From assembly GCA_964390845.1 (NCBI GenBank), contig CAYMIL010000001.1, positions 254,345 through 290,715 on the forward strand: a DNA stretch of 36,371 nucleotides. The letters are read 5' to 3'. Source of the stretch: an uncultured Candidatus Saccharibacteria bacterium. Lineage in GTDB: Bacteria; Patescibacteriota; Minisyncoccia; Phycocordibacterales; CALRHW01. The stretch's first letter is position 1. Each line of letters opens with the position of its first letter. The position numbers and the translations under genes were made by a program. This document shows positions 2,659 to 36,371 of this stretch, piece by piece. The notes under the pieces are model-generated. The model had not been told where the DNA came from and made no database searches. It saw only the letters and a program-made list of their open reading frames with translations.

Positions 2659-2667
2659 GAAGTGCCG

Positions 2668-3450: not shown

Positions 3451-4422
3451 TTACTTTCTCTTAATCTCAAACCGAGTGACAATATATCTAAGTACAAGAA
3501 GAAGCCCCGCGATTCCAACAATCACTACAGCAACAAGTTTTACTGGAATGACCCAGAACGTTACCTGTCGTGTATCAATGATGTCGTTATATCCTCTATT
3601 AATAGAGGCTGTCGCTGTGTAGCGTCCGAGTAAAAAGCCTGGATTCCACTCAACTTCTCGAGTGCGAAATGTTCCTGGCATTGCAAACCACGGACTTACA
3701 TCGACAGCACCAACTTCTTTACCAAACATATTGGTAACACGAATCTCTCCATACGGATTTACGTGTACGCTTCCTGTGTTGTGATACACAAGATGAAATG
3801 GAATTGGTGCGGTATCAAACGCACTTTGATTTCGCGCCGTCGTAAATTCCGTCAACGCACCCTCTGCGTGCACAGGACCTTTTACCCGAATAAAGAACAA
3901 TGTACCTATTCGAGCAACAATTGCATTTGATGCTGGTGCGCCGCTAGACGCAGACTTTGAGACCGTACTTGAAAGCACAGAACCATACAATCCCCCTGGT
4001 TCTGCATCAGCGGGTACAAAGACTGTAACTGGCACCACCGCTCGCTGACCCTGCTTAAGCTCAAAACTTTTCTGTGAGACAGAAAGGTAGTCTCTAAGCG
4101 AATATGGGCCACGGGCATCTCCCAACAATGTAACGGGTGATTCAGGATTATCTGATCCAACAAAATCTTCTATATCGAGATTAAAGATTCTGTCATCACC
4201 CATTCTGTTGGTAACCATGAGGTTTACCACTTTTGTTTCGCCCGGATTCATTTCGAGCTCAACTTTGCCTGGACCGACAACGAAATCGCCAAATACCTCA
4301 TCTGGATTTGGAATTGTTTCGATCGTATACGCAGACACGAATGAACAAGGAACTGCGAGACCTGCAACCATAACCATCGCCACGGTGATACCGAATATTA
4401 AGTTGTTTCGTGTAGCCGACAT
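3451..4422 (-). CDS. Membrane-anchored cell-surface protein with DUF916/DUF3324-like architecture
   Basis: 323-aa ORF. Signal peptide, then GPGKVELEMNPGETKVVNLMVTNRMGDDRIFNLDIEDF (an Ig-like strand pattern typical of the N-terminal domain of that family). A second beta domain ends in GRYTATASI. C-terminal TM helix and basic tail: VKLVAVVIVGIAGLLLVLRYIVTRFEIKRK. Confidence 0.5.
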   Translation of the reverse strand: MSATRNNLIFGITVAMVMVAGLAVPCSFVSAYTIETIPNPDEVFGDFVVGPGKVELEMNPGETKVVNLMVTNRMGDDRIFNLDIEDFVGSDNPESPVTLLGDARGPYSLRDYLSVSQKSFELKQGQRAVVPVTVFVPADAEPGGLYGSVLSSTVSKSASSGAPASNAIVARIGTLFFIRVKGPVHAEGALTEFTTARNQSAFDTAPIPFHLVYHNTGSVHVNPYGEIRVTNMFGKEVGAVDVSPWFAMPGTFRTREVEWNPGFLLGRYTATASINRGYNDIIDTRQVTFWVIPVKLVAVVIVGIAGLLLVLRYIVTRFEIKRK

Positions 4423-4431
4423 TTCAGTAAA

Positions 4432-5121
4432 TTAATTTGTTGTCGCTGTTAATGTCGTCGTCGCGGTATATGTTCCAGAAGCCTTACCAGAACCGCTATT
4501 TAGGAAGGTTCTAAAGACCATTGTAGACGTAGCACCCGATGCCGCCGTTGCGCCCGTCGTGACGATTGTTGAGGTTGCCGTTGTAGAGAGACCCATCCAA
4601 CATGATGCTGAGGAGCTTGTGTCAACACCGCCCGACCAGTTGCATGTTGAAAAACCATCGTCCTTAAACTTTTGAGCAAGCTCACCTGTTGTACTCGCAG
4701 ATACCGTGAATCCAAATTCAGCTCCCGAAGGTACTGAAAATGTGTAGTCAGGAATACCTGCTGTTGCTGGTGTGTAATCATTTATTGAATCACCACCACC
4801 CTCTCTCTGCATTGCAGGAGAAGAACTCGCCTGTACTGTCATCGTAAACCCAAGATTGTTGTTCGTTGCGACGCGGACACTTGTTGTCCCGTATGCAGAA
4901 CCTCCAGTCGTACCGGCGATAGAACCGTTCATTGTCACGTCACTTGCAGGTGCCGCGAATGAAATCTCCGCTGTGATTGTTTGATGAATCTCGAACTGAT
5001 CTTCCGCTGATGCCGAGCGTCCGAGAGTAGGCTCGACAGCCGCAAAACCAACCGAGAGGATAAGTGTCAAAAAGACACTCGTCGCAATCGCTCGTCTTGC
5101 ATCTGTAATTTTCATAATCAT
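4432..5121 (-). CDS. Secreted beta-rich surface protein, WxL-like (Trp-less) paralogue 1
   Basis: The track ORF 4432..5142 begins at a TTG. ATGs at 5121 and 5115 (MIMKITDARRAIATSVFLTLILSVGFAAV...) are more plausible starts, and 5115 is the alternative. Internal strand LGFTMTVQASSSPAMQREGGGDSINDYTP. C-terminal strand SGTYTATTTLTATTN. Confidence 0.55.
   Translation of the reverse strand: MIMKITDARRAIATSVFLTLILSVGFAAVEPTLGRSASAEDQFEIHQTITAEISFAAPASDVTMNGSIAGTTGGSAYGTTSVRVATNNNLGFTMTVQASSSPAMQREGGGDSINDYTPATAGIPDYTFSVPSGAEFGFTVSASTTGELAQKFKDDGFSTCNWSGGVDTSSSASCWMGLSTTATSTIVTTGATAASGATSTMVFRTFLNSGSGKASGTYTATTTLTATTN
4793..4830. repeat. 38-nt block identical to 3011..3048 (copy 2)
   Basis: Same 38-mer, read directly from the sequence. 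Confidence 0.9.
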
Positions 5122-5178
5122 ACCTTTGTAATTAATTAACAAAACTCACCTTGATAAATAATTGTTCGACCTTTCAGG

Positions 5179-5233
5179 CCAGTGCGCCTGTCCTCGAAGC
5201 TCCCCACGGAAGCGCCGAGGACAAGTGCACTGG
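5179..5233 (-). other. Long GC-rich imperfect inverted repeat (RNA hairpin or protein-binding site) between the regulator gene and the surface operon
   Basis: The arms ccagtgcgcctgtcctcg (5179-5196) and cgaggacaagtgcactgg (5216-5233) pair over 18 positions, with one A.C mismatch and one G.U wobble. The 19-nt spacer can itself pair (gcttcc/ggGagc). No U-tract follows on the minus strand. Confidence 0.6.
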
Positions 5234-5238
5234 AGTTA

Positions 5239-6144
5239 TTAATCGCCCGGAGCACGTGACACACCATCATCGACAGGCACGAGTACGTACACATAATCGC
5301 CACCATCCTGTGTATGCTTAAAGACAGGCTGAATAACTCCTGATGTTCCTGTTTCGTCTGGTATCACTCGCGTCTCATCCGAAAACGCATTTTTAATCTT
5401 TTGCTTTGTTTTTTCGTCGGTAGCTTGGTCGCCAGAACTTGGGACAACCGCAATGCCAAAATTATTTTTTTCTCCGGTAACGACAGTGTCGAGATGTGTT
5501 GTGTCACGCACAACGAGAGTTTGTGATGTATTTGTGTTGAAGATTCGAGAAAGAGTTTTGTACGTACCGAGTGCTGTTGTGTTTAGAAATCGTGCGAACA
5601 TTCCAAGTGTACGATCTGTGAAGTATGCAGTCTTTCCCATTGGAGATGTTGCGGAAGATTCTTCAACAAGCGCAACGTATCGAGTAACATCAGAGGCAAC
5701 GTGCGCGACGAGATTTCGATTAAACGTAATCGTGTTTTCTGCAAATTCAGCAACACGGATCTGTGTTGTTGGATTGTAGGTCATCATGGCAACAAAGACG
5801 ATACATGCAATAGCGGGCACGATAGCAATGTACGAAATCGCACGACGCACCCTTTCGTCAAACACGGACGGCAGAGAGATTGACGCCTGCACGACCACTG
5901 GCTCATGTTTTGATGTTGATGGAGAACCTGGAAAATAAATAATTCCCCGAGGTTTTTCTGAACTACTTTTTTGATGCTGGAGAAGTGACTCTTCGCTTAC
6001 AAACCAGCTCCTTCCAACAAGTCTGCAGTCGAGTTTTTCTTTTCGGCAGAGTTGTCCGATATAATCCGAATTATAGCCACTAATTTGTGAAGCTCGTCTA
6101 GCCGAGATATATTTTTTTCCTTCAAAATAGAGCTCACTGTTCAT
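5239..6144 (-). CDS. Membrane-tethered protein: N-terminal HTH-like domain, one TM helix, ~175-aa extracytoplasmic domain
   Basis: The track ORF is 5239..6150. A TATAAT at 6153-6158 lies only 2 nt from ATG 6150 but 8 nt from ATG 6144, so 6144 is preferred. N-terminus KYISARRASQISGYNSDYIGQLCRKEKLDCRLVGRSWFVSEESL looks like a MerR/excisionase-type HTH. TM segment AISYIAIVPAIACIVFVAMMTY. Confidence 0.6.
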   Translation of the reverse strand: MNSELYFEGKKYISARRASQISGYNSDYIGQLCRKEKLDCRLVGRSWFVSEESLLQHQKSSSEKPRGIIYFPGSPSTSKHEPVVVQASISLPSVFDERVRRAISYIAIVPAIACIVFVAMMTYNPTTQIRVAEFAENTITFNRNLVAHVASDVTRYVALVEESSATSPMGKTAYFTDRTLGMFARFLNTTALGTYKTLSRIFNTNTSQTLVVRDTTHLDTVVTGEKNNFGIAVVPSSGDQATDEKTKQKIKNAFSDETRVIPDETGTSGVIQPVFKHTQDGGDYVYVLVPVDDGVSRAPGD

Positions 6145-24649: not shown

Positions 24650-25671
24650 AGAGATGATGCGTGTGGCATATGTAGTTTTATAAACTCATGAGCAATATCG
24701 TCCCACGTATGCACAAAAGAAAATTGCTGTAACGCATGGAGCTGTTTCTCATATACCTCAGGAGAAGAAAGTGCAAGAATTTTTTCTGTGATATCTGACA
24801 CACTGCACGGATCTACATACAATGCTGTATCGCCAATTCTATCCGTAAGTCCATTTTCTTTCGTGAGAACAAAAGGCTTGTTGCAACGAATTGCATCGAG
24901 AATCATATTGGGGCTTATATCTCCAAACGACACGAGAATGACGGCATACGACTCCTGAATTTTTTTCAAAAAGTTCTCGTGGGGTACATTGGAAAAATCT
25001 ACATCAATACTCGGGTCAACTGCGCGCGCCATCTCAATAGCCTGCTTCAACATATCATGATTTTTTAAAAACAACCTTCGTGCAGTTGCAACAAAAACCT
25101 TCCGCTCATTTTGAACAGGACGATACTCTATCTTGGGGCCATAAAAATTCTCAATAATAGAGACCTTCCTCATATCCAAACGATATGGTGCACGGAAAAT
25201 ATCTCTCTGCCACGCAGTACTAAACACGATTGCATCGACCATCGAAAACATCTGACGTGTCAGAAAGAAAATGATGCGCTCCTTAAGCGAAAAACGCGAC
25301 ATGTGAGCAGGTATATAAAACTCCCGCAAGAGCACTGGCTCACGCATACGTTCTACATATTGCTCCCAGATAAAATCTCCTCCCACTCGCACAATTATTT
25401 TTTTACCCAAAAGTCGGCACGCCCACGCAGATGGAACACCTACAGAAAATGTATCGAGTGCAATCGTCATATCGACACCACGAAGAGTGACAAGGGTTCT
25501 GAAAAAAAAGAGTACGTGCCGAAAAAAAACTGGAATCTTGCGCTCTACCCCGTATGTCAGCACGGAGACACTGTCGCCTCGACGTCTAAATGCCTGCTCT
25601 AGACCAACAGCATACTGAGCTGGACCACCAAGATGTGGCGGGTAAATCCCCGTACATATGAGAATCTTCAT
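24646..25671 (-). CDS. Glycosyltransferase-like protein (GT-B fold, divergent)
   Basis: 341 aa. N-terminus MKILICTGIYPPHLGGPAQY is typical of GT4/GT1 N-domains. The C-domain is divergent. Confidence 0.55.
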   Translation of the reverse strand: MKILICTGIYPPHLGGPAQYAVGLEQAFRRRGDSVSVLTYGVERKIPVFFRHVLFFFRTLVTLRGVDMTIALDTFSVGVPSAWACRLLGKKIIVRVGGDFIWEQYVERMREPVLLREFYIPAHMSRFSLKERIIFFLTRQMFSMVDAIVFSTAWQRDIFRAPYRLDMRKVSIIENFYGPKIEYRPVQNERKVFVATARRLFLKNHDMLKQAIEMARAVDPSIDVDFSNVPHENFLKKIQESYAVILVSFGDISPNMILDAIRCNKPFVLTKENGLTDRIGDTALYVDPCSVSDITEKILALSSPEVYEKQLHALQQFSFVHTWDDIAHEFIKLHMPHASSL

Positions 25672-25684
25672 ACCGTATACCCTA

Positions 25685-26857
25685 TCACGAAAAGACCTTT
25701 TGGTGCATAGCCTTAGCTACCCCCTCCCAGTCGTAGTGTTCCGCAACAAGACGTTTTGCGTTGCGCGTAATCGCCGCACGTAGCTCATCACTGTCTATAA
25801 TCTTATTGACGCTCACGGCAATACTTTCTGGATCATTGACCTTGCAAAAAACACCTGTCACTCGATCCGTGAGAAAATCAGGAATACCACCAACAGGTGT
25901 GGCGATGACAGGAATACCTGCGGCCATTGCTTCAATAAATGAATTGCCCATACCCTCAGACAATGACGGACGAATAAATATATCTGAAATTTTCAAGAAA
26001 CGAGGAACGTCTTTGTACTCGACAGAGCCAATAAAGTGTACCCTCTCTGCCACACCAAGCCCCTGCGCGAGTTCTTTGAGCTCGCGCTCCCGTGGTCCAG
26101 GACCAATAACCAGAAACCGAACGTGGTTTGGCAACAATGTTAGCGCGCGTATAACATCGGCAATTCCATTTTTTTCAACAAGCCGAGATACTGTGACTAA
26201 AAAAATGTCCCCGGGCTGTTTATGAAACTCCCACCGCAACGTACCAAGCTCTTGTTCGCTGTACTCACGAGCAAACGCTTCAACATCAACACCGTTTGGA
26301 ATCACCTCAACCACGCCCGTATACCCCATCTGCCGCGCAAAGTGTGCGAGATATCGCGAAATCGCCTGCACTTTTGATGCTGTCTTAAAAATACGACGGT
26401 ATAGCGGATACACCGCGCGAATTCTCCAGCGCTTTGTAATGTGTGCGACGGTATCACCTTCTTGCAGTGTCAATAACATCGGCAACGAGGTGAACAGACG
26501 CAGTAGCAAGGCAGGAAATCCCATGTACGACATCATCGCCCAGACAGCATGATATGGCCGAGCTCGATGCAATACAATACCTTTATACAATGCCATGAGC
26601 GGAAATAATACTTTATTAAGGTACATTGGAAACGAGACCAGATCCTCCATCGTTGGATTGTTCATGGAAAAACCGATACGATGCACTGTTACATTGCCCA
26701 CCTTCTCCACGCGAGGAAGACTCCTGTCGTAGCGCAGTGTGACCATATCAAATTCAATATCGCCAGGCGATATTCTATCGGTAATTTCTTTTATGGCAAT
26801 TTCAGCACCACCGATAAACGGGTGGTACGAGAGTGAATATATGAGTATTCTTTTCAT
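25685..26857 (-). CDS. Glycosyltransferase, GT4 family
   Basis: 390 aa. YHPFIGGAEIAIKEI. SRLVEKNGI. IRPSLSEGMGNSFIEAMAAGIPVIATPVGGIPD. Confidence 0.8.
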   Translation of the reverse strand: MKRILIYSLSYHPFIGGAEIAIKEITDRISPGDIEFDMVTLRYDRSLPRVEKVGNVTVHRIGFSMNNPTMEDLVSFPMYLNKVLFPLMALYKGIVLHRARPYHAVWAMMSYMGFPALLLRLFTSLPMLLTLQEGDTVAHITKRWRIRAVYPLYRRIFKTASKVQAISRYLAHFARQMGYTGVVEVIPNGVDVEAFAREYSEQELGTLRWEFHKQPGDIFLVTVSRLVEKNGIADVIRALTLLPNHVRFLVIGPGPRERELKELAQGLGVAERVHFIGSVEYKDVPRFLKISDIFIRPSLSEGMGNSFIEAMAAGIPVIATPVGGIPDFLTDRVTGVFCKVNDPESIAVSVNKIIDSDELRAAITRNAKRLVAEHYDWEGVAKAMHQKVFS

Positions 26858-26865
26858 GAGCAGTC

Positions 26866-28569
26866 TTACTGTGATATATCGAGTACTTTTCTAAGGACAT
26901 CTTCCGGAACTTCTTTAGGTTGCGCAGGCGCGCGCTCCTCTTTTTTCTCAGGAGCTATCTTTTCGGGTGCTGGCTCTACTGGTTTTTGTATAACCGATGC
27001 GAGCGCTTGTTTGAGACTCGAAATGTTTTCTGGTGTTGGCACTTTTTTATCAACGGGCTTTTTCTCTTTCTTTTTCAAATGTTCAAGCGATACTGTCTGT
27101 GGTGGCGCAGGCTCTTTTATCTCAATTTTCCCATCAGGAGCAACGTGAAGATGTTTGAACGGATTCTCCTGCTGAGGCATCTCTGGTGTCGGCGGAGCTT
27201 TTTCTCGCCTCTGCTCCGAGTGACGAGCTTGCTCAGGAGAACGAGGTTGCTGTTTTGTAGACTGCTTCTGCGGTGATGCGGAAATAGGCTCGTGCCATTT
27301 AAAGATATCGTCCTCCACTTCTTTGCGTGGACGCGCAAAGACACGTCGAGAATGTTCAATAATCTGCTCACGAAACAGCTGTTCAGGTTTTGCGATTGGC
27401 GGCAAACCTGTCGCCGAAAATGGTGGTGAGGTAACACCGTCGATCATGAGCTTCAGATAAATCTGATACATGCCGAGATTGACCAGATCCTCTGCAGTAA
27501 ACACCGGCATAAACTCTTTCTCAAACACTTCTGCATCATAGGCACCAACACGGAAAACAATCATTGTGCCGACGTTACCAAAGACAGCGGCTCGCACCTC
27601 CTCCGACATTTGTTCGATGTATTGGTGGGCGACCGTCAAATTGAGCTTGTACTTTCGAGCCTCAGAAAGAATATCAGCAAACGACTCGTTGGCAAAGTTT
27701 TGAAATTCATCCACAAAAAGATAAAACTGTGGGAGTTTGTTGAGCTCAGCCTCAGAAGCATCGGCGCGTGACATCGCCGCAAGGTAGATTTTTGTAATGA
27801 GCATACTTCCCAGAAGGTTTGCATTTGCCTCACCTACTCGCCCCTTGGAGAGATTGACGATGATAATCTTGCGCTCGTCCATTGCCTTGCGGATATCAAA
27901 TGTCGATTTTGGCTGGCCGATAATGTTGCGCACGAGAGGATTCGACACAAACTGACCAATTTTGTTTTGAATAGCCGCACCCGCCTCTTGCATATAACGC
28001 TCTCCGTACTTATTAAACTCATCAATCCAAAAGGCTTTCACAGATGGATCAGACACATTGTCGACTACTTTATTTCTATACTCTTTGTCGGCAAGCATTC
28101 TGTTGACACCGAGGAGTGTTGAGTCTGGATACTCAAGCAGAGCAAGGAGGATATTGTTGAGAATATACTCCATACGAGCCGACCATGCATCGACCCAAAT
28201 CTTTTTAAACGCACTCATGAGGCCGTTGGCAACAAGATGGCGCTTGTTGGGACCAACGTCCTCCATCACGTTAAATGATATTGGGAAATCTGTATCAAAC
28301 GGAGCGAAGTAGATAACGTCTTGTATGCGGTGTTCTGGCACATACTCAAGAAGCAAATCAGCGGTCTTGCCGTGTGGGTCGATAAATGCCATACCTTCCC
28401 CATTCTTAATATCTTGCACCGCCATGTTTTCAAGCAAGGTAGATTTTCCCATGCCTGTTTTTCCAATGACGTACACATGACGCGAGCGGTCTTTCGCTTT
28501 TATACCAAAGGAGACTTTCTGATTTCGGGAATCGGTTTGCCCAAAATATGTGATTGCGTTCGGGTTCAT
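26866..28569 (-). CDS. TraD/VirD4-like (coupling-protein-type) P-loop ATPase, soluble, with a ~150-aa disordered K/P/E-rich tail
   Basis: The track starts at GTG 28587; the first ATG is 28569 (MNPNAITYFG). Walker A IGKTGMGKSTL. Walker B FYLFVDEFQNF. LTVAHQYIEQM. No TM helix. An extended -10 TGaTATACT lies 18 nt upstream of ATG 28569. Confidence 0.65.
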   Translation of the reverse strand: MNPNAITYFGQTDSRNQKVSFGIKAKDRSRHVYVIGKTGMGKSTLLENMAVQDIKNGEGMAFIDPHGKTADLLLEYVPEHRIQDVIYFAPFDTDFPISFNVMEDVGPNKRHLVANGLMSAFKKIWVDAWSARMEYILNNILLALLEYPDSTLLGVNRMLADKEYRNKVVDNVSDPSVKAFWIDEFNKYGERYMQEAGAAIQNKIGQFVSNPLVRNIIGQPKSTFDIRKAMDERKIIIVNLSKGRVGEANANLLGSMLITKIYLAAMSRADASEAELNKLPQFYLFVDEFQNFANESFADILSEARKYKLNLTVAHQYIEQMSEEVRAAVFGNVGTMIVFRVGAYDAEVFEKEFMPVFTAEDLVNLGMYQIYLKLMIDGVTSPPFSATGLPPIAKPEQLFREQIIEHSRRVFARPRKEVEDDIFKWHEPISASPQKQSTKQQPRSPEQARHSEQRREKAPPTPEMPQQENPFKHLHVAPDGKIEIKEPAPPQTVSLEHLKKKEKKPVDKKVPTPENISSLKQALASVIQKPVEPAPEKIAPEKKEERAPAQPKEVPEDVLRKVLDISQ

Positions 28570-28614
28570 ACGCGTAGAACTAGACACAGTATATCACACA
28601 GACGAAGTCCGCAT

Positions 28615-29859
28615 CTATTCTGCCTTCAGTGCACCAATAGTATATTTGTTACTTGGACTCCAGATCATCCACGAATCAACACCCGCATCATAGCTCGCCT
28701 GAATCTGAGCTTGTATTTCGGGTATATCATAATTACCACCATAATCAAAATCCTGAATCCATGTGCGGAGTTTGTGCGCAGAGCCACCTGTATACCAAGA
28801 CGGAAGTGGTGGTAGTGGAGGCGTTGACGTACTCACCGCTTCTTGTACTCCGATGCGCGCATCAAGCGCATTCGCACGCTCTACAGCGCGCTCCATCGAC
28901 ATGTGCACAATCTCATAAATATGATTGTTTGGATTTGCCCACCCATTGAAATTTTTCGGATAGTGAGATGGGTACACCATTGGAGCAATGTAATCAAAAT
29001 ACGGCAATGCCCGCTCAAGCACCTGGCCAATGTTGAGGTCATCTGTATTAGTGGTTGTCATACCAAACAAATCTGCAGAAGTAACGAGGCCTGTGTCTTT
29101 GAGTTTGTCATGAAGGTATGCAAAAAACTCTTCAAGTGCCTGTGGTTTTGTTTTGCCAATAGAATGAGCATAAAGCACATCATCCATATTTCCATCCGAA
29201 GGAAATCTGATATAGTCAAAATTAACCTCATCAAAGCCGACGTTGTATGCCTCATGCGCAATCGCCACGACATAGTCCCAATATTCACGCGCACCCACTT
29301 CAATAAAACTCAAACCTTTAAAGTCTTTCCATACCGTACCAGTCGACTTGCTCTGCACGCCCCAGTCTGGACGCTTCTTTACCATAAATGGATCCTGAAA
29401 AACTGTTACGCGGCCTATCACATATATACCCTTATCGTGGAGTGTTTGAATAAACTCACGCATATCAGATGTCCCACACTGATCTGAAATCGCGGCAGTG
29501 AGTTGTGGGTCTGTTACATCAAACGAAAGTTTCCCCGTGTAATCTTTTATATCAATAACAATTGCATTTACTTCTGTATCGTCTGCAATCTTCACGAGTT
29601 TTTCTCGAAATGATTTTGTACCGACAACACACTGACTCATATAAATTGCTTTGAGAGGATCTGGTGTTGGCAAATGCACCACGGGTGGCAACGCGGATAC
29701 ATCTGCCACATCTGCGCGTGCGGCAATAGGTGCCGCCGTATTTACATCCACATCATACTTTGTCGCAAAAAAACGTGGCGATGCGACAGACACGACAACC
29801 AAAAGACTACAGACTATTGCAATGCCGCCATACTTTTGTATCTCTGGAGTTACCGCCAT
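28615..29859 (-). CDS. Membrane-anchored putative glycoside hydrolase (TIM-barrel, DUF4015-like)
   Basis: 414 aa with an N-terminal anchor. IVIDIKDYTGKLSFD, GRVTVFQDP and DEVNFDYIRFPSDG resemble the putative glycosyl hydrolase domain family I know as DUF4015. Confidence 0.5.
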   Translation of the reverse strand: MAVTPEIQKYGGIAIVCSLLVVVSVASPRFFATKYDVDVNTAAPIAARADVADVSALPPVVHLPTPDPLKAIYMSQCVVGTKSFREKLVKIADDTEVNAIVIDIKDYTGKLSFDVTDPQLTAAISDQCGTSDMREFIQTLHDKGIYVIGRVTVFQDPFMVKKRPDWGVQSKSTGTVWKDFKGLSFIEVGAREYWDYVVAIAHEAYNVGFDEVNFDYIRFPSDGNMDDVLYAHSIGKTKPQALEEFFAYLHDKLKDTGLVTSADLFGMTTTNTDDLNIGQVLERALPYFDYIAPMVYPSHYPKNFNGWANPNNHIYEIVHMSMERAVERANALDARIGVQEAVSTSTPPLPPLPSWYTGGSAHKLRTWIQDFDYGGNYDIPEIQAQIQASYDAGVDSWMIWSPSNKYTIGALKAE

Positions 29860-29862
29860 GTC

Positions 29863-30246
29863 CTAAGAAAGCTCTTGTTTGTTTTCCTCATTACTAGCCT
29901 CAACCGGCGCTTCAACAACCGCCTCACTCACAACGGGCTCTACCACTTCTTCAACCTCTTCTTGTGCAGGTGTATCCGCAACGGGCTCTTCAGCAACAGG
30001 CTCACTTTCCTCTACTGGCAACACAGACGGAGAACTTTCTACAAACGCCTCTGATGAGCGAGGTTTTTTTGTGCCAACACGTCGATGAATACGCTTGTGA
30101 CGCGCCATAAGAAATGACAGCGTAGAAATAGTGAGTCCGGATAGTACATAAATAATTTCTTCATACGGACTCGGGAATCCTCCGAATACAGCAATGAATG
30201 CAATCCAGATACCGAGTATGAGAATGAGTTGGTTCTTCGAAATCAT
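29863..30246 (-). CDS. Small two-TM membrane protein with an acidic E/V/P-rich C-terminal tail
   Basis: The track ORF runs to 30261, which would overlap the murC stop. ATG 30246 (MISKNQLILILGIWIAFIAVFGG) avoids the overlap. Tail: EESEPVAEEPVADTPAQEEVEEVVEPVVSEAVVEAPVEA. Confidence 0.5.
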   Translation of the reverse strand: MISKNQLILILGIWIAFIAVFGGFPSPYEEIIYVLSGLTISTLSFLMARHKRIHRRVGTKKPRSSEAFVESSPSVLPVEESEPVAEEPVADTPAQEEVEEVVEPVVSEAVVEAPVEASNEENKQELS

Positions 30247-30253
30247 GGACACA

Positions 30254-31528
30254 TTATACATATAAACGGAGTTTGTTAATATCCCCAGCGCCCATTGTAA
30301 TCACCACATGAGAAGAATCGAGCGCAGTCAATGTATCCACGCACGAAGCAATGTCTTCGGGAGCAGATACGGTCCCAGCATGAGCGGCTTGTATTTTATC
30401 GGCAAGTATCTGAGATGAGATTGTCGGGTCTGCAGGCTCACGAGCAGCGTAAATTGGCGCAATAATAACTTCGTCTGCCGCACCAAATGCCTGTGCAAAG
30501 TGTTCAAGGTGTTCTTTGGTTCTGCTATAGAGATGAGGTTGGAATACTACCGTAATGTGCTTGTCTGGGAAGAGTTCTCGCGCTCCACGAAGTGTTGCTT
30601 CAACTTCTGTTGGATGATGTCCGTAATCGTCGTAGACAAGCGCACCACCGCGAGTTGTGCCCTTATACTCAAAACGTCTCCATGTGCCGTTGAATGAGCG
30701 GAGAGATGCGCGCGCGACCTCGTCTGGAATACCGAGTATGCGCGCTACCGCAAGGGCCGCGCGCGCATTACTTCTGTTGTGCTCGCCAGGGACTCGAAGT
30801 CCGTCGGGTGCACCCTCTGTCATGTAATCACGCACACCCGCAACAACACCACCGAGCGCCGGTGCGGTACACTCTGCTGTACTGTCACACACAACAAAAC
30901 CCTGAGCGGGGACGCGTCGTGCAAGATCATTGAACGCTGACTGTATATCCGCAATATCTTTGTAATAGTCGAGGTGATCGTCATCAATATTTGTAACAAC
31001 AAGTATGTGCGGATAAAGCTGTAAAAACGATCGGCGATACTCGCATGCTTCAACAATAAAATACTTACTCTTCCCTGGCACAAAGTTGCTCTGTTGTTCT
31101 GAAAGCAAACTACCCACAATCACCGTTGGATCAAGGCCGGCATCGATACAGATTTTCGCAAGCATTGCTGTCGTTGTTGTTTTTCCATGCGTACCAGAAA
31201 TTGCAATTGTATATTTGTCCTGAGAAATTTTTCCGAGCATTTCTGGATACGATAACACCGGCACACCCAAAGTGCGCGCATGCTCGAGAAGGTGTGGCGC
31301 AAGTGTTGTCCATGCGATACTGTAGACAATCACATCAACGCCAGAAGGAATCACCGAAGGGTCGGTGCCGAGCGTTGTGTCGATACCCACAGCACGCAAC
31401 GCAGAAACCATTGGGAATTCTTCTAAGTCATTGCCAGTCACACGATTTCCTTCGTGGGCCAACATGCGCGCAAGTGCAGAGATGCCTATTCCGCCAATAC
31501 CGATACAGTGGATGTGTTGCATGGACAT
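30254..31528 (-). CDS. murC: UDP-N-acetylmuramate--L-alanine ligase
   Basis: 424 aa. IHCIGIGGIGISALARML. ISGTHGKTTTTAM. NIDDDHLDYY. The Mur ligase C-domain is present. Confidence 0.9.
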   Translation of the reverse strand: MSMQHIHCIGIGGIGISALARMLAHEGNRVTGNDLEEFPMVSALRAVGIDTTLGTDPSVIPSGVDVIVYSIAWTTLAPHLLEHARTLGVPVLSYPEMLGKISQDKYTIAISGTHGKTTTTAMLAKICIDAGLDPTVIVGSLLSEQQSNFVPGKSKYFIVEACEYRRSFLQLYPHILVVTNIDDDHLDYYKDIADIQSAFNDLARRVPAQGFVVCDSTAECTAPALGGVVAGVRDYMTEGAPDGLRVPGEHNRSNARAALAVARILGIPDEVARASLRSFNGTWRRFEYKGTTRGGALVYDDYGHHPTEVEATLRGARELFPDKHITVVFQPHLYSRTKEHLEHFAQAFGAADEVIIAPIYAAREPADPTISSQILADKIQAAHAGTVSAPEDIASCVDTLTALDSSHVVITMGAGDINKLRLYV

Positions 31529-31529
31529 A

Positions 31530-32903
31530 CTATACCACCTTCAGCCTCTTTACTGCCTTAGTAAATTGATCTCCCCTATCAAACTCGTTTTGAAACATAC
31601 CGAAGGATGCAAAACCAGGGCAAAACAAAATGGTGTCGCCAGGCCGAGCAAAAAAGAACGCTCGCGCAAGGGCCTCATCTACCCCACCAGCTTCAACCAC
31701 ATGAACATCCTCCAAGCTGTTGAGAAGCGGCTTTATCTTCTCAGACCCCGTTGTATTTTTCCCAGACAGCAATACAACGGTTGTAGCAAATTCTGGTATA
31801 CGCCTAACGACTGGTTCCATATCGAGATTTTTATCTGCACCACCCATGATGAGGACAATATTTTTCTCTCCACCCTGCTCACCACCAAGTGCAGTAAGTG
31901 CCGCGAGAAGTGAATCTGGCGTGGTAGACGTGGTGTCGTTATATATAGAAATTCCATTCACGGTTCGCACAAGCTCAAGCCGACCCTCGACACCTTCAAA
32001 AGAAGCGACCGCTTCTTCTACAACTTTTTCATCAATATCAAAGACGCTCGTCGCGGCGACAGCAAGGGCAATATTACGACGATTGTGCTCGCCCTTCAGC
32101 ACCGTCTGCCACGAACGCGGAATATCAAGCGGTACGACGCAATGACTCTTCAAATCTGGGTATCGTCGCTGAATATGCTGGAGTAAGTCTTTTGGAGCAA
32201 TAAGAAAATCCCTACCTGTTTGAGCAGAGAAAATGTTTGCCTTGTCCGCCCAATACGCATCGCGATCGTTGTTGTAGTAATTGAGATGATCGTCGAGAAA
32301 ATTTGTAAACACTGATACGTGCGGGCTTATATGAGCTTCACCAAAACCTTGCAACTGCCACGATGACAGCTCAAGCACTACAATATCTCCAGCTTTTACT
32401 TTCTTTAACAGCGGCAGTGTCGCCATGCCACGAATATTTCCCCCAAGCCATACCGCCCGCTTCCAAGACATCTCTCGACGCGCTGTCGTCAGTACGTGGT
32501 GAATAAGCATTGTTGTTGTTGTCTTACCACGCGTACCTGTAACCCCAACAATAGTTATGTCTGGAGCGCACTTAGCGAAAAGTGATTCGTCCATTTCAAC
32601 AGGAATACCCTGCGCACGCGCCTCTGCAATAAACATCGAATCTCGTGGCACGCCTGCGGCCTTAAGAATCATATCTCTGTCGCGAAAATCTTCGAGTCGA
32701 TGCTCTCCGAGTACATACGTGATACCTTTATACTTCTTGAGCTTTGCGAGAGTGGGTGCAAGCTCTTCCTTACTCTTCATATCGGTTACAATGAGCTTCG
32801 CGCCACACTCTGCCAAAAACGCAACATCAGCAAGACCTCGACCGAGCAGTCCGAGTCCCATCACTGTAATTCGTTTTCCTTTAAAAAAATCTTTGTACGT
32901 CAT
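31530..32903 (-). CDS. murD: UDP-N-acetylmuramoylalanine--D-glutamate ligase
   Basis: Start moved to ATG 32903 (MTYKDFFKGKRITVMGLGLLGRG), because the track start 32948 would overlap the pilin gene. VGVTGTRGKTTTT. TNFLDDHLNYY. Confidence 0.85.
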   Translation of the reverse strand: MTYKDFFKGKRITVMGLGLLGRGLADVAFLAECGAKLIVTDMKSKEELAPTLAKLKKYKGITYVLGEHRLEDFRDRDMILKAAGVPRDSMFIAEARAQGIPVEMDESLFAKCAPDITIVGVTGTRGKTTTTMLIHHVLTTARREMSWKRAVWLGGNIRGMATLPLLKKVKAGDIVVLELSSWQLQGFGEAHISPHVSVFTNFLDDHLNYYNNDRDAYWADKANIFSAQTGRDFLIAPKDLLQHIQRRYPDLKSHCVVPLDIPRSWQTVLKGEHNRRNIALAVAATSVFDIDEKVVEEAVASFEGVEGRLELVRTVNGISIYNDTTSTTPDSLLAALTALGGEQGGEKNIVLIMGGADKNLDMEPVVRRIPEFATTVVLLSGKNTTGSEKIKPLLNSLEDVHVVEAGGVDEALARAFFFARPGDTILFCPGFASFGMFQNEFDRGDQFTKAVKRLKVV

Positions 32904-32916
32904 TGATACCGCGTCG

Positions 32917-33357
32917 TTAATTACCGCATGATGATTCATTGAGATCACCGTCTGTTGAGGTTATTTTCGCCCAAAAACCCACATCCGATGAACTAAAACA
33001 CCTATAATCTCCTTCCCCAACTTTTAGATACACAACATACGAGGAAGAACCGTCATAACACCTAAAAAAAGTCCCCGTATCTGGAAAAGGAGTACCTCCT
33101 CCATACGTATCAGACATCGACTCAAGCCCACGCCGTATCTGAGTATCGTCTTGGCACATTCTTCCATAGGAGAAGTTGTCGTTGTAGTACTGTTCCAAAA
33201 GCGGACGGATAGTGGAAAAACTTTGCCTGATCGACACTTCTCGGGCGCGTGTCCGCGTATCAGAAAGCATGGCAAGCACGACAGAAGTCACAATCGCAAT
33301 GATGGCGATTACCACAAGAAGCTCTATAAGAGTAAAACCTCGACGAGACCCGCGCAT
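32917..33357 (-). CDS. Type IV pilin-like protein (prepilin N-terminal cleavage/methylation motif)
   Basis: ATG 33357 gives MRGSRRG|FTLIELLVVIAIIAIVTSVVLAML, a class III signal peptide followed by a G/FTLIE motif. Four Cys in the globular part. TATACT (33369-33364) lies 6 nt upstream of the ATG. Confidence 0.8.
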   Translation of the reverse strand: MRGSRRGFTLIELLVVIAIIAIVTSVVLAMLSDTRTRAREVSIRQSFSTIRPLLEQYYNDNFSYGRMCQDDTQIRRGLESMSDTYGGGTPFPDTGTFFRCYDGSSSYVVYLKVGEGDYRCFSSSDVGFWAKITSTDGDLNESSCGN

Positions 33358-33387
33358 ACAGACAGTATAGCGCAAAAGACGCCTCTA

Positions 33388-34809
33388 CTATATCACTTCA
33401 ACGAGAAGCATATTTGTCTTCACGTTTTTTGTATTAAAGGGTGCGCCTGCGGCAATAACCACCGTATCACCTTTCTCGGCAAAGCCGTGTTTCAAACAAA
33501 AAGCACGAATTGTTTTAAAAGCATCAGTAAGTGTCGTACATCGGTCAATTTCCACGGGACAACATCCGAAACTTAAATTAAGTTTACTACACACGCGCGC
33601 CTGAGGAGAGAGCGCCATAATAAGCTGTGCTGGTTTGTATCGAGACACCATGCGCGCAGTGAATCCTGTTTCGGTAAGTGCAAAAATAAGTTTTGCACCA
33701 ACCGCATGCGCGGTGTCGACCGTTGCGGCGGTTACAGAGTTGACAACATCCATACCTCGCGTATGCGTACTACCAACATCGCATCGCTCAGAAAGACCAC
33801 GCTCTACCTCAAGAGCAACACGAGTCATCACCTCAACCGCTTCTACAGGATACGCGCCGAGCGTTGTTTCCTCAGACAACATCACTGCATCAGTACCATC
33901 AAGAATTGCGTTTGCGATATCAGACACTTCTGCGCGTGTCGGTGTCGGTGATTCAATCATCGAATCGAGCATCTGTGTTGCGGTGATTACTGGCTTTCCT
34001 ACGTTGTTACATTTCTCGATAATCATCTTCTGAATCATCGGCACCTGTTCTGCAGGAACCTCGATTGCCAAATCTCCACGCGCCACCATAATGCCATCTG
34101 CAAGCGCGATAATGTCATCGATATGCTCAACCGCTTCAGGCGTTTCAATCTTTGCGATGATACCCGCGTCGAGCTTTGCACGCTTCATCATATCTCGCAA
34201 TTCTGCGACATCTTCTGGGCGGCGAACAAATGAAAGCGCAACAAAATCCACTTTATGTTTTACCGCAAATGCGAAATCCGCCCGATCTTTATCAGTGATG
34301 GAGCTAATCTTCAAATATGCGCCAGGAAAATTTGCGCCGCGACGACCGCGTATCTCACCGCCAACAACAACACGACACACAACTTCTTTTTTCTTAATAT
34401 CAACAACCTCAAGGCGCTTACGACCGTCATCAAGGAGCACGGCGCCACCAACGCGTACTTCCTTGGGTAATGTTGGATAATTGATGAATACACGCTCTAC
34501 GTTCCCAACGCACGGCTGTGTTGTAAGTGTAAAGAGTTCGCCCTCCTTCAAGACAATAGATTCCGTTTCAAAATCTCCAATACGAATTTTTGGACCACAC
34601 AAATCTTGGAGTATACCGATACTTCGGCCGAGCTTGTCCATAAGTGCTCGCGCTGTGCGAATACGACGTCCATGCTCTACATGATCACCATGAGAAAAGT
34701 TGAGTCGTATGACATCAACACCAGCTTCAACAAGCCTCTCCATCATCTCGGCAGACTCTGTTGCTGGACCAATCGTTGCTACAATTTTTGTCTTTTTTCG
34801 TATATCCAT
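33388..34809 (-). CDS. pyk: Pyruvate kinase
   Basis: The track ORF extends to 34938 across the tRNA gene. The real start is ATG 34809 (MDIRKKTKIVATIGPATES). NFSHG. MVARGDLAIEVP. ATQMLDSM. Confidence 0.9.
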   Translation of the reverse strand: MDIRKKTKIVATIGPATESAEMMERLVEAGVDVIRLNFSHGDHVEHGRRIRTARALMDKLGRSIGILQDLCGPKIRIGDFETESIVLKEGELFTLTTQPCVGNVERVFINYPTLPKEVRVGGAVLLDDGRKRLEVVDIKKKEVVCRVVVGGEIRGRRGANFPGAYLKISSITDKDRADFAFAVKHKVDFVALSFVRRPEDVAELRDMMKRAKLDAGIIAKIETPEAVEHIDDIIALADGIMVARGDLAIEVPAEQVPMIQKMIIEKCNNVGKPVITATQMLDSMIESPTPTRAEVSDIANAILDGTDAVMLSEETTLGAYPVEAVEVMTRVALEVERGLSERCDVGSTHTRGMDVVNSVTAATVDTAHAVGAKLIFALTETGFTARMVSRYKPAQLIMALSPQARVCSKLNLSFGCCPVEIDRCTTLTDAFKTIRAFCLKHGFAEKGDTVVIAAGAPFNTKNVKTNMLLVEVI

Positions 34810-34853
34810 AGAAATAAAATGGCGCCATAAAGGCGCAACACTACCCACATACC

Positions 34854-34929
34854 TGGTGCGCGCACTAGGAGTCGAACCTAGGACCTTTCGAGTATCAGTC
34901 GAATGCTCTACCAGCTGAGCTATGCGCGC
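34854..34929 (-). tRNA. tRNA-Ile (anticodon GAU), CCA encoded
   Basis: The reverse complement folds by hand as GCGCGCA-TA-GCTC-AGCTGGTA-GAGC-A-TTCGA-CTGATAC-TCGAA-AGGTC-CTAGG-TTCGACT-CCTAG-TGCGCGC-ACCA. It is 76 nt and all four stems are fully paired. Confidence 0.9.
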
Positions 34930-34996
34930 ATACGGCACGGACCCACGCCCATGCGATGTTCATAAAATCTAGCAAAAAACCGCCATAAAAACAACT

Positions 34997-35025
34997 CAAC
35001 CACCCGCTCTCCGAGCCGGTGGTTG
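34997..35025 (-). terminator. Rho-independent terminator after the GH23 gene
   Basis: Minus strand: CAACCACC-G-GCTC-GGA-GAGC-G-GGTGGTTG, followed by AGTTGTTTTTATGGCGGTTTTTT. Confidence 0.65.
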
Positions 35026-35088
35026 TTATACATCCTCAAGAACTTCACAAGCGGTCCCCGCTTGCAACGAACCGAACATTTCTGTCAT

Positions 35089-35529
35089 TTACGAAAGCTT
35101 CTCCAGAATCTTCTTGACCTGAGCCCAGTACGCATTGGTGCTTGAACGCTTGTATCCGTGTGGACCTCCATTCCAGATACGCGCACAATCCTCATACGTC
35201 GGCTCCCGCCCCAAACGCTCCTTCGTTGCGTACATCTGCATGTACTTCTTGCAGATTTCAATTGACAGTGCGCGGTTGCCCAGACACTGCTTGGCGGTAT
35301 ACGCAGAGCCGAAGCGCTTGTTAACGTCGTCAACACAGGGCTGACGAATCTGAAGCGGACCATAGGCGTGGGCAGGCAAGTGCTTGTCGCCAACAGCCTT
35401 GTCGTCGCCGTGAGACTCATGTTCGATGAGTGCCGCGATGAGACGGTCCATGTCTACCGGTGTGGGCTCCGCCAGAGCGTGAGCGACACACATGAGACAG
35501 AGGCAAACCACAATCGTGGTGAGCTTCAT
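35089..35529 (-). CDS. Secreted lysozyme-like protein (GH23: goose-type lysozyme / SLT lytic transglycosylase superfamily)
   Basis: Start at ATG 35529, preceded by GAGGAA and a 6-nt spacer. Signal peptide MKLTTIVVCLCLMCVAHALA|EP. LIEHESHGDDKAVGD...AYGPLQIRQ resembles the RESHAG...GLMQ(V/I) catalytic region. Four Cys in the mature part. Confidence 0.55.
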   Translation of the reverse strand: MKLTTIVVCLCLMCVAHALAEPTPVDMDRLIAALIEHESHGDDKAVGDKHLPAHAYGPLQIRQPCVDDVNKRFGSAYTAKQCLGNRALSIEICKKYMQMYATKERLGREPTYEDCARIWNGGPHGYKRSSTNAYWAQVKKILEKLS

Positions 35530-35596
35530 GACAGTTTCCTCAAAGATCACCTGAGTGCAGAAACGCGTTGTTTCTTGTCGCATCAGGACTGAGGAA

Positions 35597-35625
35597 ATAA
35601 TAGCATATTAAAAACATACTGTCAA
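35597..35625 (-). promoter_or_regulatory. Consensus sigma-70 promoter for the GH23 gene
   Basis: Minus strand: TTGACA (35625-35620), 17-nt spacer, TATTAT (35602-35597). Confidence 0.7.
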
Positions 35626-35654
35626 TGTATACTCTACCACCAAGAAAAGAAAGA

Positions 35655-35683
35655 GGGCGCTGCGGCAAGATGCCGCAGCGCCC
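35655..35683 (-). terminator. Strong rho-independent terminator after 35704..36018
   Basis: Perfect 13-bp stem GGGCGCTGCGGCA / TGCCGCAGCGCCC with a 3-nt loop, followed on the minus strand by TCTTTCTTTTCTT. Confidence 0.8.
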
Positions 35684-35703
35684 AGTATGTCTCCCCACCC
35701 AGT

Positions 35704-36018
35704 TCACGCAGAACGGTTCCACCCGTCCGTGCCCAGCTCGACACGCGTCAGCGGGTCGTTCTGAATGTTGGCACGGGCCGCGGCGAGATCCTGATCGCTG
35801 ACACGATCGAGGTCTCCGCTTGCGAGCAAGCGGTCCACCGCGACCGCCGCCTCAGCGTTGCTGACCTCCGCCCGAGCACTGGCGTCCGCGCGAGCCTGCG
35901 CGCGCATGGCGGTGGGACTCGCATTCCACCGACGCTCAGGGAGCTTGCTCCCCTTGTGCTGGGAACGAGACACCGGACGACGCGACGGAATGTTTCCGAA
36001 ACCAGAGTTCTGAACCAT
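35704..36018 (-). CDS. Hypothetical 104-aa Ala/Arg-rich protein in a very GC-rich segment
   Basis: The ORF shows clear GC3-biased codon periodicity (GAC CTC GAT CGT GTC AGC GAT CAG GAT CTC GCC GCG GCC CGT...). AGGA lies 11 nt upstream. It has its own promoter and terminator. No signal peptide and no motif I recognise. Confidence 0.45.
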   Translation of the reverse strand: MVQNSGFGNIPSRRPVSRSQHKGSKLPERRWNASPTAMRAQARADASARAEVSNAEAAVAVDRLLASGDLDRVSDQDLAAARANIQNDPLTRVELGTDGWNRSA

Positions 36019-36094
36019 ACCCTGTTTTTTCCTTTCAACTCAGGGTGAAGAAGAAAATGAACATCGTGTACAAGACCTTCCTGCACACAAATAC

Positions 36095-36123
36095 AGTATA
36101 TCATAAAATATATACATTGTCAA
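36095..36123 (-). promoter_or_regulatory. Consensus sigma-70 promoter for 35704..36018
   Basis: Minus strand: TTGACA (36123-36118), 17-nt spacer, TATACT (36100-36095). Confidence 0.7.
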
Positions 36124-36129
36124 TATACA

Positions 36130-36160
36130 GAAAACCACCAGCGTTATGCTGGTGGTTTTC
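36130..36160 (-). terminator. Hairpin ~150 nt downstream of the 16S 3' end (terminator-like, A-tract/T-tract symmetric)
   Basis: GAAAACCACCAGC-ataac-GCTGGTGGTTTTC on the minus strand: a 13-bp stem whose ends are an A-run and a T-run. Confidence 0.6.
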
Positions 36161-36307
36161 AGATACTATTCTTTATTTTGTTCCGTTCAGAGCAGTCTTT
36201 CCTGCTGTCATGCTTCTTTTAGGATATCAAGCAACGATCCTTTCCGAACTCGATCGAGATTCAGAAATCGACTGTCAGTCTGCATGCAAAAGCACACAGA
36301 CGGGTTT

Positions 36308-36371
36308 CAATTGAAATACTCCACGAGCAGCTTCCGCTACCCGTGCCTTGTTACGACTTACTCCCTGTCAT
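36308..36371 (-). rRNA. rrs: 16S rRNA gene, extreme 3' end only (gene continues beyond the window)
   Basis: The reverse complement reads ATGACAGGGAGTAAGTCGTAACAAGGCACGGGTAGCGGAAGCTGCTCGTGGAGTATTTCAA. It contains the universal AAGTCGTAACAAGG (1492R primer site). Helix 45 is fully paired (CACGGGUAGC/GCUGCUCGUG) and has the conserved GGAA tetraloop. The 3' boundary is approximate. Confidence 0.75.

Follow-up and report, generated by a model that had tools for sequence, protein, structure and literature searches.

Does a pair of genes lodged between an rRNA gene and a tRNA gene share one origin, or did its members arrive at different times? The stretch of DNA considered here, called the window throughout, comprises 36,371 nucleotides (nt) of contig CAYMIL010000001.1 (assembly GCA_964390845.1) from an uncultured member of the Patescibacteriota. 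At 35089-36123, the gap that runs from the 3′ end of the 16S rRNA gene to tRNA-Ile(GAT), beside the gene for pyruvate kinase, is filled by two minus-strand units, one encoding a predicted muramidase (here called the lysozyme) and the other an open reading frame (ORF) of 104 codons, ORF104 (Table 1). A sequence-only reading of the window had taken both for one horizontally acquired insert. The locus is the 16S/tRNA-Ile(GAT) spacer of a Parcubacteria/Paceibacteria-type genome with unlinked rRNA genes, and it holds two independent single-gene transcription units. We think it likely that these units differ in age, the lysozyme being an old cassette and ORF104 a lineage-specific unit. The lysozyme cassette would then consist of promoter P2, a leader with a Shine–Dalgarno (SD)-like sequence, the lysozyme gene and terminator T2, and would yield a protein that, once exported (presumably through the Sec pathway), measures ~14 kDa. 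The family of this protein occurs in bacteria and phages and is nearest to the i-type lysozymes of invertebrates. The other unit (promoter P1, ORF104 and terminator T1) would be a lineage-specific addition of ~490 bases, placed after the 16S terminator and ahead of the lysozyme promoter; its transcription is very likely, and the product may be a small cytoplasmic protein or an RNA.

The age of the lysozyme cassette can be judged from its position in other genomes. The order 16S, lysozyme, tRNA-Ile(GAT), pyruvate kinase is found in distant relatives (e.g., loci L011, L084, L123, L126 and L152). A lysozyme homologue adjoins 16S and/or tRNA-Ile in 29 of 76 non-redundant cellular loci: the 3′ end of a 16S gene on the same strand lies within 2.6 kb in 15 of the 52 loci with enough upstream flank, and tRNA-Ile(GAT) lies within 1.3 kb in 20 of the 61 with enough downstream flank. 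The gap between 16S and lysozyme is usually 220-430 nt; it reaches 780 nt in the window because the ORF104 unit lies inside it. In the lysozyme tree, the nearest neighbour has the same 16S-adjacent context in 17 of 27 cases, a value reached in none of 2000 permutations, and Fitch parsimony requires 12 steps for this context against 24 expected. Among relatives that carry the lysozyme, L130 is the nearest in pyruvate kinase (63% identity), and no syntenic lysozyme is more similar to that of the window than its own (65%). Counted on the pyruvate-kinase tree, where lineages with and without the lysozyme are interleaved, its distribution requires ~4 losses or at least six gains. Across loci, the G+C content at third codon positions (GC3) of the lysozyme follows that of its host (r 0.80, slope 0.84) but lies above it by an offset of +0.09 that is common to the family. 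Genomes of the Taylorbacteria type have the gene at another locus (H+-pyrophosphatase, lysozyme, NusA), where its composition matches the surroundings. The synteny, the shared promoter type and a GC3 that tracks the host therefore make the lysozyme probably an old resident of this slot, inherited vertically and lost in several lineages including L004, the closest available relative. For the lysozyme, the claim of an acquired insert is thus contradicted by its occurrence in the same slot, behind the same type of promoter, in distant relatives.

Several observations weigh against long residence. L004 (pyruvate kinase 72% identical), the single close relative at hand, aligns with the window through 16S and 150 nt of trailer as far as 36156, and the alignment resumes at 34933, 4 nt short of the tRNA; between these edges, L004 has 563 unrelated bases that contain neither a consensus promoter nor a lysozyme. 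The 16S/tRNA-Ile spacer likewise lacks the lysozyme in L005, L010, L076 and L009, and neither there nor in L004 is there a pseudogene remnant. The distances between lysozymes do not correlate significantly with those between pyruvate kinases (Spearman 0.23, p 0.24). The window lysozyme has a GC3 offset of +0.22, at the 99th percentile of native-gene offsets and ~1.6 standard deviations (sd) above the family norm, which is high but not unique, as L113 and L119 equal it. Finally, the 16S-adjacent copies do not form a single clade, and the resolution of both neighbour-joining trees is poor, which leaves room for in-place replacement or repeated insertion. Across the region, the window is matched at 100% identity by four other contigs from three samples, which therefore offer no population variation to use.

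In-place replacement can be framed as cassette swapping, in which the 16S 3′ end and tRNA-Ile serve as homology arms for DNA from other Parcubacteria and the present lysozyme allele is a recent replacement. The geometry fits, since the variable segment has the 16S unit as one border and comes within 4 nt of the tRNA at the other. The presumed arms are also well conserved: tRNA-Ile is 96-99% identical between the organism of the window (L001, a longer contig of the same organism) and the distant L010 and L076, and helix 45 is the same in 23 of 24 16S tails. Spacer cargo differs by lineage and in some cases includes consensus promoters and G+C-rich ORFs (L084 7503-7955, L118 and L140), GC3 offsets are large in several hosts, and some distances are discordant (L084 and L011 share 69% identity in pyruvate kinase and 54% in lysozyme). 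No donor allele was found, however: the nearest lysozyme (P0002) is 75% identical, and its genomic context is not on record. A lysozyme GC3 that tracks the host and a context that is clustered phylogenetically both fit long residence instead, and the GC3 offset, which is seen in phage copies too (+0.06), may be intrinsic to the lysozyme family. We therefore regard swapping as quite unlikely and vertical inheritance of the lysozyme as the better account.

The sequence-only reading had argued for foreign origin partly from composition, and its hand counts of G+C (201/300, 89/180, 171/300 and 22/60) were exact on recount. The stretch at 67% G+C exceeds every other 300-nt interval of the window (mean 46.1%, sd 3.6, maximum 58%), whereas the lysozyme gene, at 55.3%, lies right at the upper end of the background (maximum 55.1%). 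For GC3, the values are 0.67 in the lysozyme and 0.72 in ORF104 against 0.33-0.47 in the 29 other long ORFs of the window, and none of the 27 native genes scored reaches either gene in third-position C/(C+T) or G/(G+A). The deviation that had been claimed thus holds for G+C, for GC3 and for tetranucleotides (correlation z = -3.9 for the 1224-nt insert), but not for the dinucleotide signature of the insert, which is closer to that of the window than any native chunk is, nor for the synonymous-codon likelihood of the lysozyme under native usage (z = -1.2, no outlier; ORF104, z = -4.1). Genes of high-G+C organisms have a third-position G+C of roughly 0.85 or more. An origin of the G+C-rich block in such an organism was rejected, as no codon-position class is at very high G+C.

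A single recent island from a G+C-richer donor, with ORF104 as an immunity protein, inhibitor or regulator of the muramidase, would explain why the whole 1224-nt segment is absent from L004, why its G+C is 54% against 46%, with the GC3 and tetranucleotide values just given, and why the two units are the only SD-bearing, leadered ones in the window. Such an island is nevertheless improbable. The lysozyme alone, without ORF104, is syntenic in many distant relatives; a strong terminator and separate promoters divide the two units; and their compositions differ from each other (55% against 66% G+C, with codon likelihoods as above). None of the neighbouring genes encodes an integrase or transposase, and the flanking repeats, which were considered as attachment (att) sites or target duplications, were rejected as such because they are matches of only 10-12 nt, the level expected by chance. 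The ordinary dinucleotide signature also speaks against an island, as does ORF104 itself, which carries neither an export signal nor a family match, defence-system models included. Of the two-gene insert, then, the absence of the segment from L004 stands, whereas the joint acquisition of its two genes is opposed by the synteny of the lysozyme without ORF104 and by the lack of signs of mobility.

Strong, self-contained expression signals had also been read as marks of an insert. Both promoters were found as described, close to the sigma-70 consensus and with 17-nt spacers (Table 1), and each gene does have its own terminator, T1 after ORF104 and T2 after the lysozyme; a simple terminator scan reported nothing 3′ of the lysozyme, and T2 was found by folding. 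P1 and P2 are the two best promoter matches in the last 10 kb of the window and the only matches to TTGACA-N16-18-TAnnnT in the whole of it, although 1.35 are expected, so that the count alone is not above chance. They are taken to be real because of their placement 60-70 nt upstream of both ORFs and because the same promoter type is conserved upstream of homologues. In 30 of 80 lysozyme loci, the top-ranking promoter of the 160 nt upstream matches at 11-12 of 12 positions (shuffled sequences score ~7.8), almost always in the form TTGACA, 17-18 nt, TGnTATAAT; a regular-expression search for the promoter delimited 43 distinct lysozyme leaders of 30-122 nt; and a terminator hairpin of -10 kcal/mol or lower is found in 36 of the 80 loci. 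Judged by these comparisons, autonomous expression signals are a trait of the lysozyme gene family. The 16S promoter of the window genome is of the same class (TTGACT-16-TATAAT). The twin promoters therefore mark high independent expression and not foreignness, and strong promoters next to rRNA genes together with deviant G+C are not by themselves evidence of recent transfer. One reservation is that the transcription starts were placed by eye from the -10 positions.

Leader structure varies within the family. The leader of the window lysozyme mRNA folds no more stably than shuffled sequences. In a subgroup of other lineages (L085, L087, L089, L091, L097, L098, L103, L105, L106, L133 and L153), the leader shares CGGTTCCTC, 6-12 nt, AGAAAGG, 8-12 nt and ATG. 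RNAalifold predicts no pairs common to the GGTTCCTC...AGAAAGG leader motif of these lineages. The CGGTTCCTC...AGAAAGG motif is absent from the window transcript, where TTCCTC lies between the -10 element and the inferred start.

What the lysozyme cassette encodes can be stated with some precision. The protein is read from the MKLTT start (146 amino acids) rather than as the 164-residue gene call, in which the longest ORF extends to 35583, because the shorter form is a better fit to the lengths of homologues and to the SD spacing. Pfam SLT (PF01464) passes marginally over residues 27-103, in the N-terminal half (22.7 bits, cut-off 21.3), and Pfam Destabilase (PF05497) stays below threshold over the C-terminal half (22.9 bits, cut-off 26.2); among 49 family members, 45 match SLT and 31 match Destabilase (E ≤ 0.01). 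A family profile searched against the PDB recovers i-type lysozymes only (8bbu at E 1e-18, then 2dqa, 3ab6 and 4pj2, down to 2.5e-7) and no GH23 chain; the single window sequence reaches 8bbu at E 2.8e-13. The AlphaFold model (predicted local distance difference test, pLDDT, 92) is closest to destabilase in Foldseek (E 9e-8, template-modelling (TM) score 0.82-0.84, root-mean-square deviation 2.4 Å, 33% identity), and GH23 transglycosylases follow behind six i-type lysozyme chains (E 7e-3 to 0.1, TM 0.5-0.6, 14-23% identity). The secreted GH23 lysozyme-like enzyme of the sequence-only reading is thereby kept as a member of the lysozyme superfamily with a signal-peptide-like N-terminus, but not as GH23, since its nearest solved relatives are i-type lysozymes. 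On sequence and model comparisons, we read it as a putative exported single-domain muramidase of the lysozyme superfamily, 'GH23-like' at the superfamily level only.

The residues of the active site agree in part with those of destabilase. The position of the catalytic Glu, E38, is invariant and S39 nearly so (an E-S motif, with helix 27-39 of the model ending at S39); the family invariants include E38, D48, A55-Y56-G57, Q60 and R117-x-W119-N-G-G-P123. In destabilase, the catalytic pair is Glu34 and Asp46, and Ser51 and His112 are the proposed isopeptidase residues (PMC10126035). Glu34 aligns with the invariant E38. Conversely, the Asp46 column varies across the family and holds P52 in the window protein, a point against the present reading; four residues ahead of it, the hairpin carries the invariant D48. 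Both isopeptidase residues are replaced by invariant ones (Ser51 by Ala55 and His112 by Trp119), so the predicted activity is cleavage of the glycan strands of peptidoglycan. All members begin with a short charged N-terminus followed by a hydrophobic region, which in the window protein is MKLTTIVVCLCLMCVAHALA and then EP; the signal peptide would span approximately residues 1-20/22, although it was called by eye and not by a dedicated predictor. A lipoprotein was considered and dropped, as inspection found no lipobox before any Cys of the signal region. Four Cys follow the signal peptide in the window protein, none of them invariant in the family. As a prediction from sequence and model, the biochemical role of a muramidase is well supported.

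Compared with known enzymes, the i-type lysozymes (leech destabilase, 8bbu/8bbw; Tapes japonica, 2dqa; Meretrix lusoria, 3ab6), which we take to be the GH22 i-type of CAZy, are the best structural matches (TM 0.76-0.84, 26-35% identity). Both groups consist of small secreted single-domain enzymes that share the catalytic Glu and a C-terminal A-R-I-x-N-G-G-P, but the i-type lysozymes are animal proteins on a disulfide-rich scaffold, whereas the window family is bacterial and phage-borne and lacks that scaffold. With GH23 (goose-type lysozymes and the SLT lytic transglycosylases Slt70 and MltE), the window family shares the lysozyme-like fold superfamily, and the SLT model fits its N-terminal half with the helix that ends in the E-S motif; structural similarity of the window enzyme to GH23 is much weaker than to the i-type. 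Homologues fall into more than 250 protein clusters, and their named sources are almost all Parcubacteria, Patescibacteria or Taylorbacteria. The family thus connects the i-type lysozymes of animals with a large gene pool in bacteria and phages, which bears on the origin of invertebrate lysozymes.

As to function, we lean slightly towards an extracellular target, with the enzyme directed at a host or prey or used for scavenging, because the protein bears a putative signal peptide and consists of one domain and because its promoter equals that of rRNA in strength. Ultra-small Patescibacteria live attached to other microbes, and how their partners are breached or fed upon is largely unknown. A small exported muramidase at one conserved locus, behind a promoter as strong as that of rRNA, would be an easily testable candidate for remodelling of, or attack on, the cell wall.

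The presence of the family in phages raises a further alternative, that the lysozyme gene is what remains, as an endolysin gene, of a prophage that integrated at the tRNA gene and decayed. Relatives (33-58% identity) are encoded on 87 stretches of uncultured viral contigs, the protein matches phrog_600 weakly, and the Cellulophaga phages (phi38:1, phi40:1 and Calle_1-3; phrog_600), the only isolated phages with a family member, carry one that is 34-35% identical over 96% of the protein (E 8e-17 to 4e-16); the Calle_1 gene is annotated 'lysozyme (Destabilise-like protein)'. Those phage copies are distant, however, and lie within a block of phage genes, whereas the window gene is a stand-alone cassette beside an rRNA gene. 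No phage genes, integrase or att-like repeats lie nearby; the gene is 5′ of the tRNA, between it and 16S; the protein has a signal peptide; the site is conserved across the clade; and the cellular copies form a clade largely apart from the viral ones. The endolysin idea is thus very improbable and, with no phage context to sustain it, was dropped. The lysozymes of five IMG/VR contigs (L169, L170, L171, L174 and L224) are nested within the cellular Patescibacteria clade; these contigs may be Patescibacteria phages or misclassified cellular fragments.

Unlike the lysozyme, ORF104 has no recognisable relatives. No homologue was found by a word search of 5.8 billion proteins, and HMMER against 1.84 billion representatives gave only low-complexity matches rich in Ala and Arg. 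None was found in phages (tblastn), plasmids (blastn) or viral contigs, among Pfam, PHROGs, PADLOC and NCBIfam models, or in 248 fetched loci, L004 included, and the ORFs of other spacers; the 81-residue G+C-rich ORF of the L004 spacer is unrelated. On these searches, the ORF104 unit is a lineage-specific, young orphan. Its transcript would be ~440 nt long, with a leader of ~70 nt that contains a hairpin and a stop codon 20 nt before T1. By inspection, the protein has no signal peptide or membrane segment. The sequence-only reading had suggested an immunity or inhibitor protein, which is unlikely given the missing export signal and family match, including to defence-system models: without an export signal, ORF104 cannot guard against an exported enzyme as the known lysozyme inhibitors do. 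Periplasmic inhibitors of lysozyme (PliI/PliC/MliC) are exported and have a recognisable inhibitor domain, and ORF104 has neither; PliI, moreover, is a beta-sheet protein, whereas ORF104 is predicted to be helical.

It is also possible that ORF104 is no protein gene, and that the P1-T1 unit is a structured non-coding RNA of ~440 nt or a functionless remnant, the ORF being a by-product of high G+C. Besides the lack of homologues at any sensitivity, chance makes this plausible: an ORF of 104 codons in DNA of 66% G+C has a probability of ~8% per frame (estimated from base composition), and another frame also runs for 118 codons without a stop. Three further features also sit poorly with a protein gene, namely a rather flat G+C profile over codon positions (0.70/0.56/0.72), a sole SD-like motif that is weak and poorly placed, and a weak single-sequence model (pLDDT 67, with a basic, disordered N-terminal half and an acidic, helical C-terminal half), and the transcript folds more stably than shuffled sequences (z = -4.0). 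The ORF nevertheless fills the transcript, from an ATG ~70 nt past the inferred start to a stop just before the terminator, and its G+C order over codon positions (third > first > second) is that of a coding frame. Moreover, the region has no Rfam match at a permissive E-value, most of the fold z comes from the terminator and the 5′ hairpin, and there are no relatives to provide covariation. ORF104 may thus be non-coding, with a probability that we place not far short of even.

Spacers of other lineages, from 16S through tRNA-Ile to pyruvate kinase, hold unrelated cargo (L084 6513-8300, L118 611-2863, L140 47-1102, L126 3917-6001 and L004 1537-1782). Extra promoters of the form TTGACA-17-TGnTAnnnT occur in these spacers, three in L118 and two in L140. 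The ORF at L084 7503-7955 has 59% G+C among native genes of 35-40%, and the 81-residue ORF of the L004 spacer has 57% G+C in an L004 of 40%. The 16S/tRNA-Ile slot seems to gather small extra cargo.

Translation signals set the lysozyme cassette apart from the rest of the window. The GAGGAA sequence reported in the sequence-only reading lies 6 nt before the lysozyme ATG, and the native genes do lack an SD, as had been stated: one was found in 1 of 19 window ORFs and in none of the other called genes, including those of L001, against a background of 13.6%. Pyruvate kinase genes have it in 0 of 22 cases, or 1 of 23 in a second count, whereas an SD core precedes a candidate lysozyme start in 23 of the 26 loci beside 16S or tRNA-Ile (Fisher test for the contrast with pyruvate kinase, p 1e-9), sometimes as a perfect AAGGAGG. 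SD-bearing lysozyme leaders include those of L084, L095, L096, L101, L108, L129, L136, L139, L143, L152 and L156. Of 15 independently called genes, five have a -10-like box whose end lies 5-8 nt before the start, as do 1.9% of all ATGs (p 6e-6), which suggests leaderless mRNAs. Such TATAAT-like boxes precede, for instance, the starts at window positions 33357, 31522, 30246 and 14805 and those of the L001 genes 1781-1981 and 1985-3109.

The ribosomal partner of these SD cores is missing. After helix 45, the 16S tail of the window reads GGAGUAUUUCAAUU and contains no CCUCC anti-SD. A tail of GGA(A/G)UAUUUCAA with no CCUCC within ~40 nt is common to all of ~21 distinct lineages (the window; L001 9227-9300; L004, L005, L010, L011, L076, L084 and L115-L156), and in three lineages CCUCC occurs only 45-53 nt past the GTCGTAACAAGG anchor. 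The window tail agrees with the loss of the anti-SD reported for a subgroup of Parcubacteria (Tsurumaki et al., 2022; PMC9297842). Unlinked rRNA genes and loss of the anti-SD are both on record for Parcubacteria (bioRxiv 10.1101/705046; PMC9297842), and the 16S gene of the window organism likewise stands alone, between a promoter and a terminator of its own. The searchable literature contains no mention of a conserved protein gene in the 16S-tRNA-Ile gap, of SD retention by such a gene or of leaderless starts, and no paper in it links leaderless initiation with Patescibacteria. The retention of an SD core by the lysozyme gene, in an anti-SD-less clade whose other genes look leaderless, provides a clean natural test case for SD-like sequences without their canonical partner.

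A bolder proposal, which we put forward tentatively and consider unlikely, is that the 16S/tRNA-Ile gap is a dedicated cassette slot of anti-SD-less Parcubacteria, in which the lysozyme is kept and orphan units are added or swapped. The units there would carry the full sigma-70 promoters and SD-bearing leaders that were abandoned elsewhere for leaderless genes. This would imply either an SD-like function without a canonical anti-SD, as a second mode of initiation or regulation for a few very highly expressed genes, or continual exchange of cassettes via the conserved arms.

Table 1. Features at the 16S/tRNA-Ile(GAT) spacer, in window coordinates.
Feature	Position	Strand	Basis or remark
16S rRNA 3′ end	36309..36371	-	Rfam model positions 1471-1533; gene body beyond window end
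16S trailer	36161..36308	-	Conserved with L004; part complementary to 16S 5′ leader
Terminator T0, end of 16S transcription unit	36130..36160	-	13-bp stem; L004 homology stops here
Promoter P1, TTGACA-17-TATACT, TG-extended -10	36095..36123	-	11/12 match
ORF104, 104 amino acids, 66% G+C	35704..36018	-	ORF; orphan, coding status uncertain
Terminator T1 of ORF104 unit	35655..35683	-	13-bp stem, 11 G-C pairs, then UCUUUCUUUU
Promoter P2, TTGACA-17-TATTAT, TG-extended -10	35597..35625	-	11/12 match
Lysozyme 5′ leader, ~60 nt, with SD-like GAGGAA at 35541..35536	35530..35590	-	Sequence; start inferred from -10
i-type-lysozyme-like predicted muramidase, 146 amino acids, predicted secreted	35089..35529	-	
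Two hairpins 3′ of lysozyme gene	34985..35066	-	Fold z = -3.3; inverted repeat I4
Terminator T2, second hairpin, then UUGUUUUUAU	stem 34997-35025	-	Folding
tRNA-Ile(GAT)	34854..34929	-	Downstream border of variable spacer; L004 homology resumes at 34933
Pyruvate kinase	33388..34809	-	Syntenic anchor; without SD

The 16S gene that borders the spacer is complete on L001 (7773-9275, 1503 nt), and no 23S gene follows it in the window; the rRNA genes are therefore unlinked. By blastn, L001 9146-9428 matches L004 1093-1375 at 87%, and L001 7723-7749, just upstream of the 16S gene, matches the L004 trailer in reverse orientation; the complementary stretches of the trailer and the 5′ leader presumably form a processing stem. 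In relatives, the 16S gene can be interrupted: L004 has ~570 extra bases at 527-1092, L084 a group I intron (Rfam) at 3693-4206 and L076 an insertion at 3621-5543, and the 16S matches span more than 4 kb in L123 (557-4847) and L128 (439-5569). The 16S gene of the window organism has no such insertion.

On the other side of pyruvate kinase, window positions 25089-33375 (L001 12227-20495) encode a pilin-like N-methyl protein, MurD, a second Mur ligase, a DUF4015 protein, a TrwB/TraG-like coupling ATPase and a GT4 glycosyltransferase, a gene set typical of Patescibacteria. With MurD and the second Mur ligase, genes for peptidoglycan synthesis thus adjoin the lysozyme locus. Between tRNA-Ile and pyruvate kinase, the terminator hairpin of the tRNA (GCGCC-UUUAU-GGCGC and a U tract, window 34809-34836) ends 12 nt before the pyruvate kinase ATG, with the U tract abutting the start codon, and the promoter scan reported no promoter-like site between the two. 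Pyruvate kinase may therefore be expressed by read-through or from an unrecognised start signal. The same arrangement of tRNA-Ile terminator and pyruvate kinase is found in L004.

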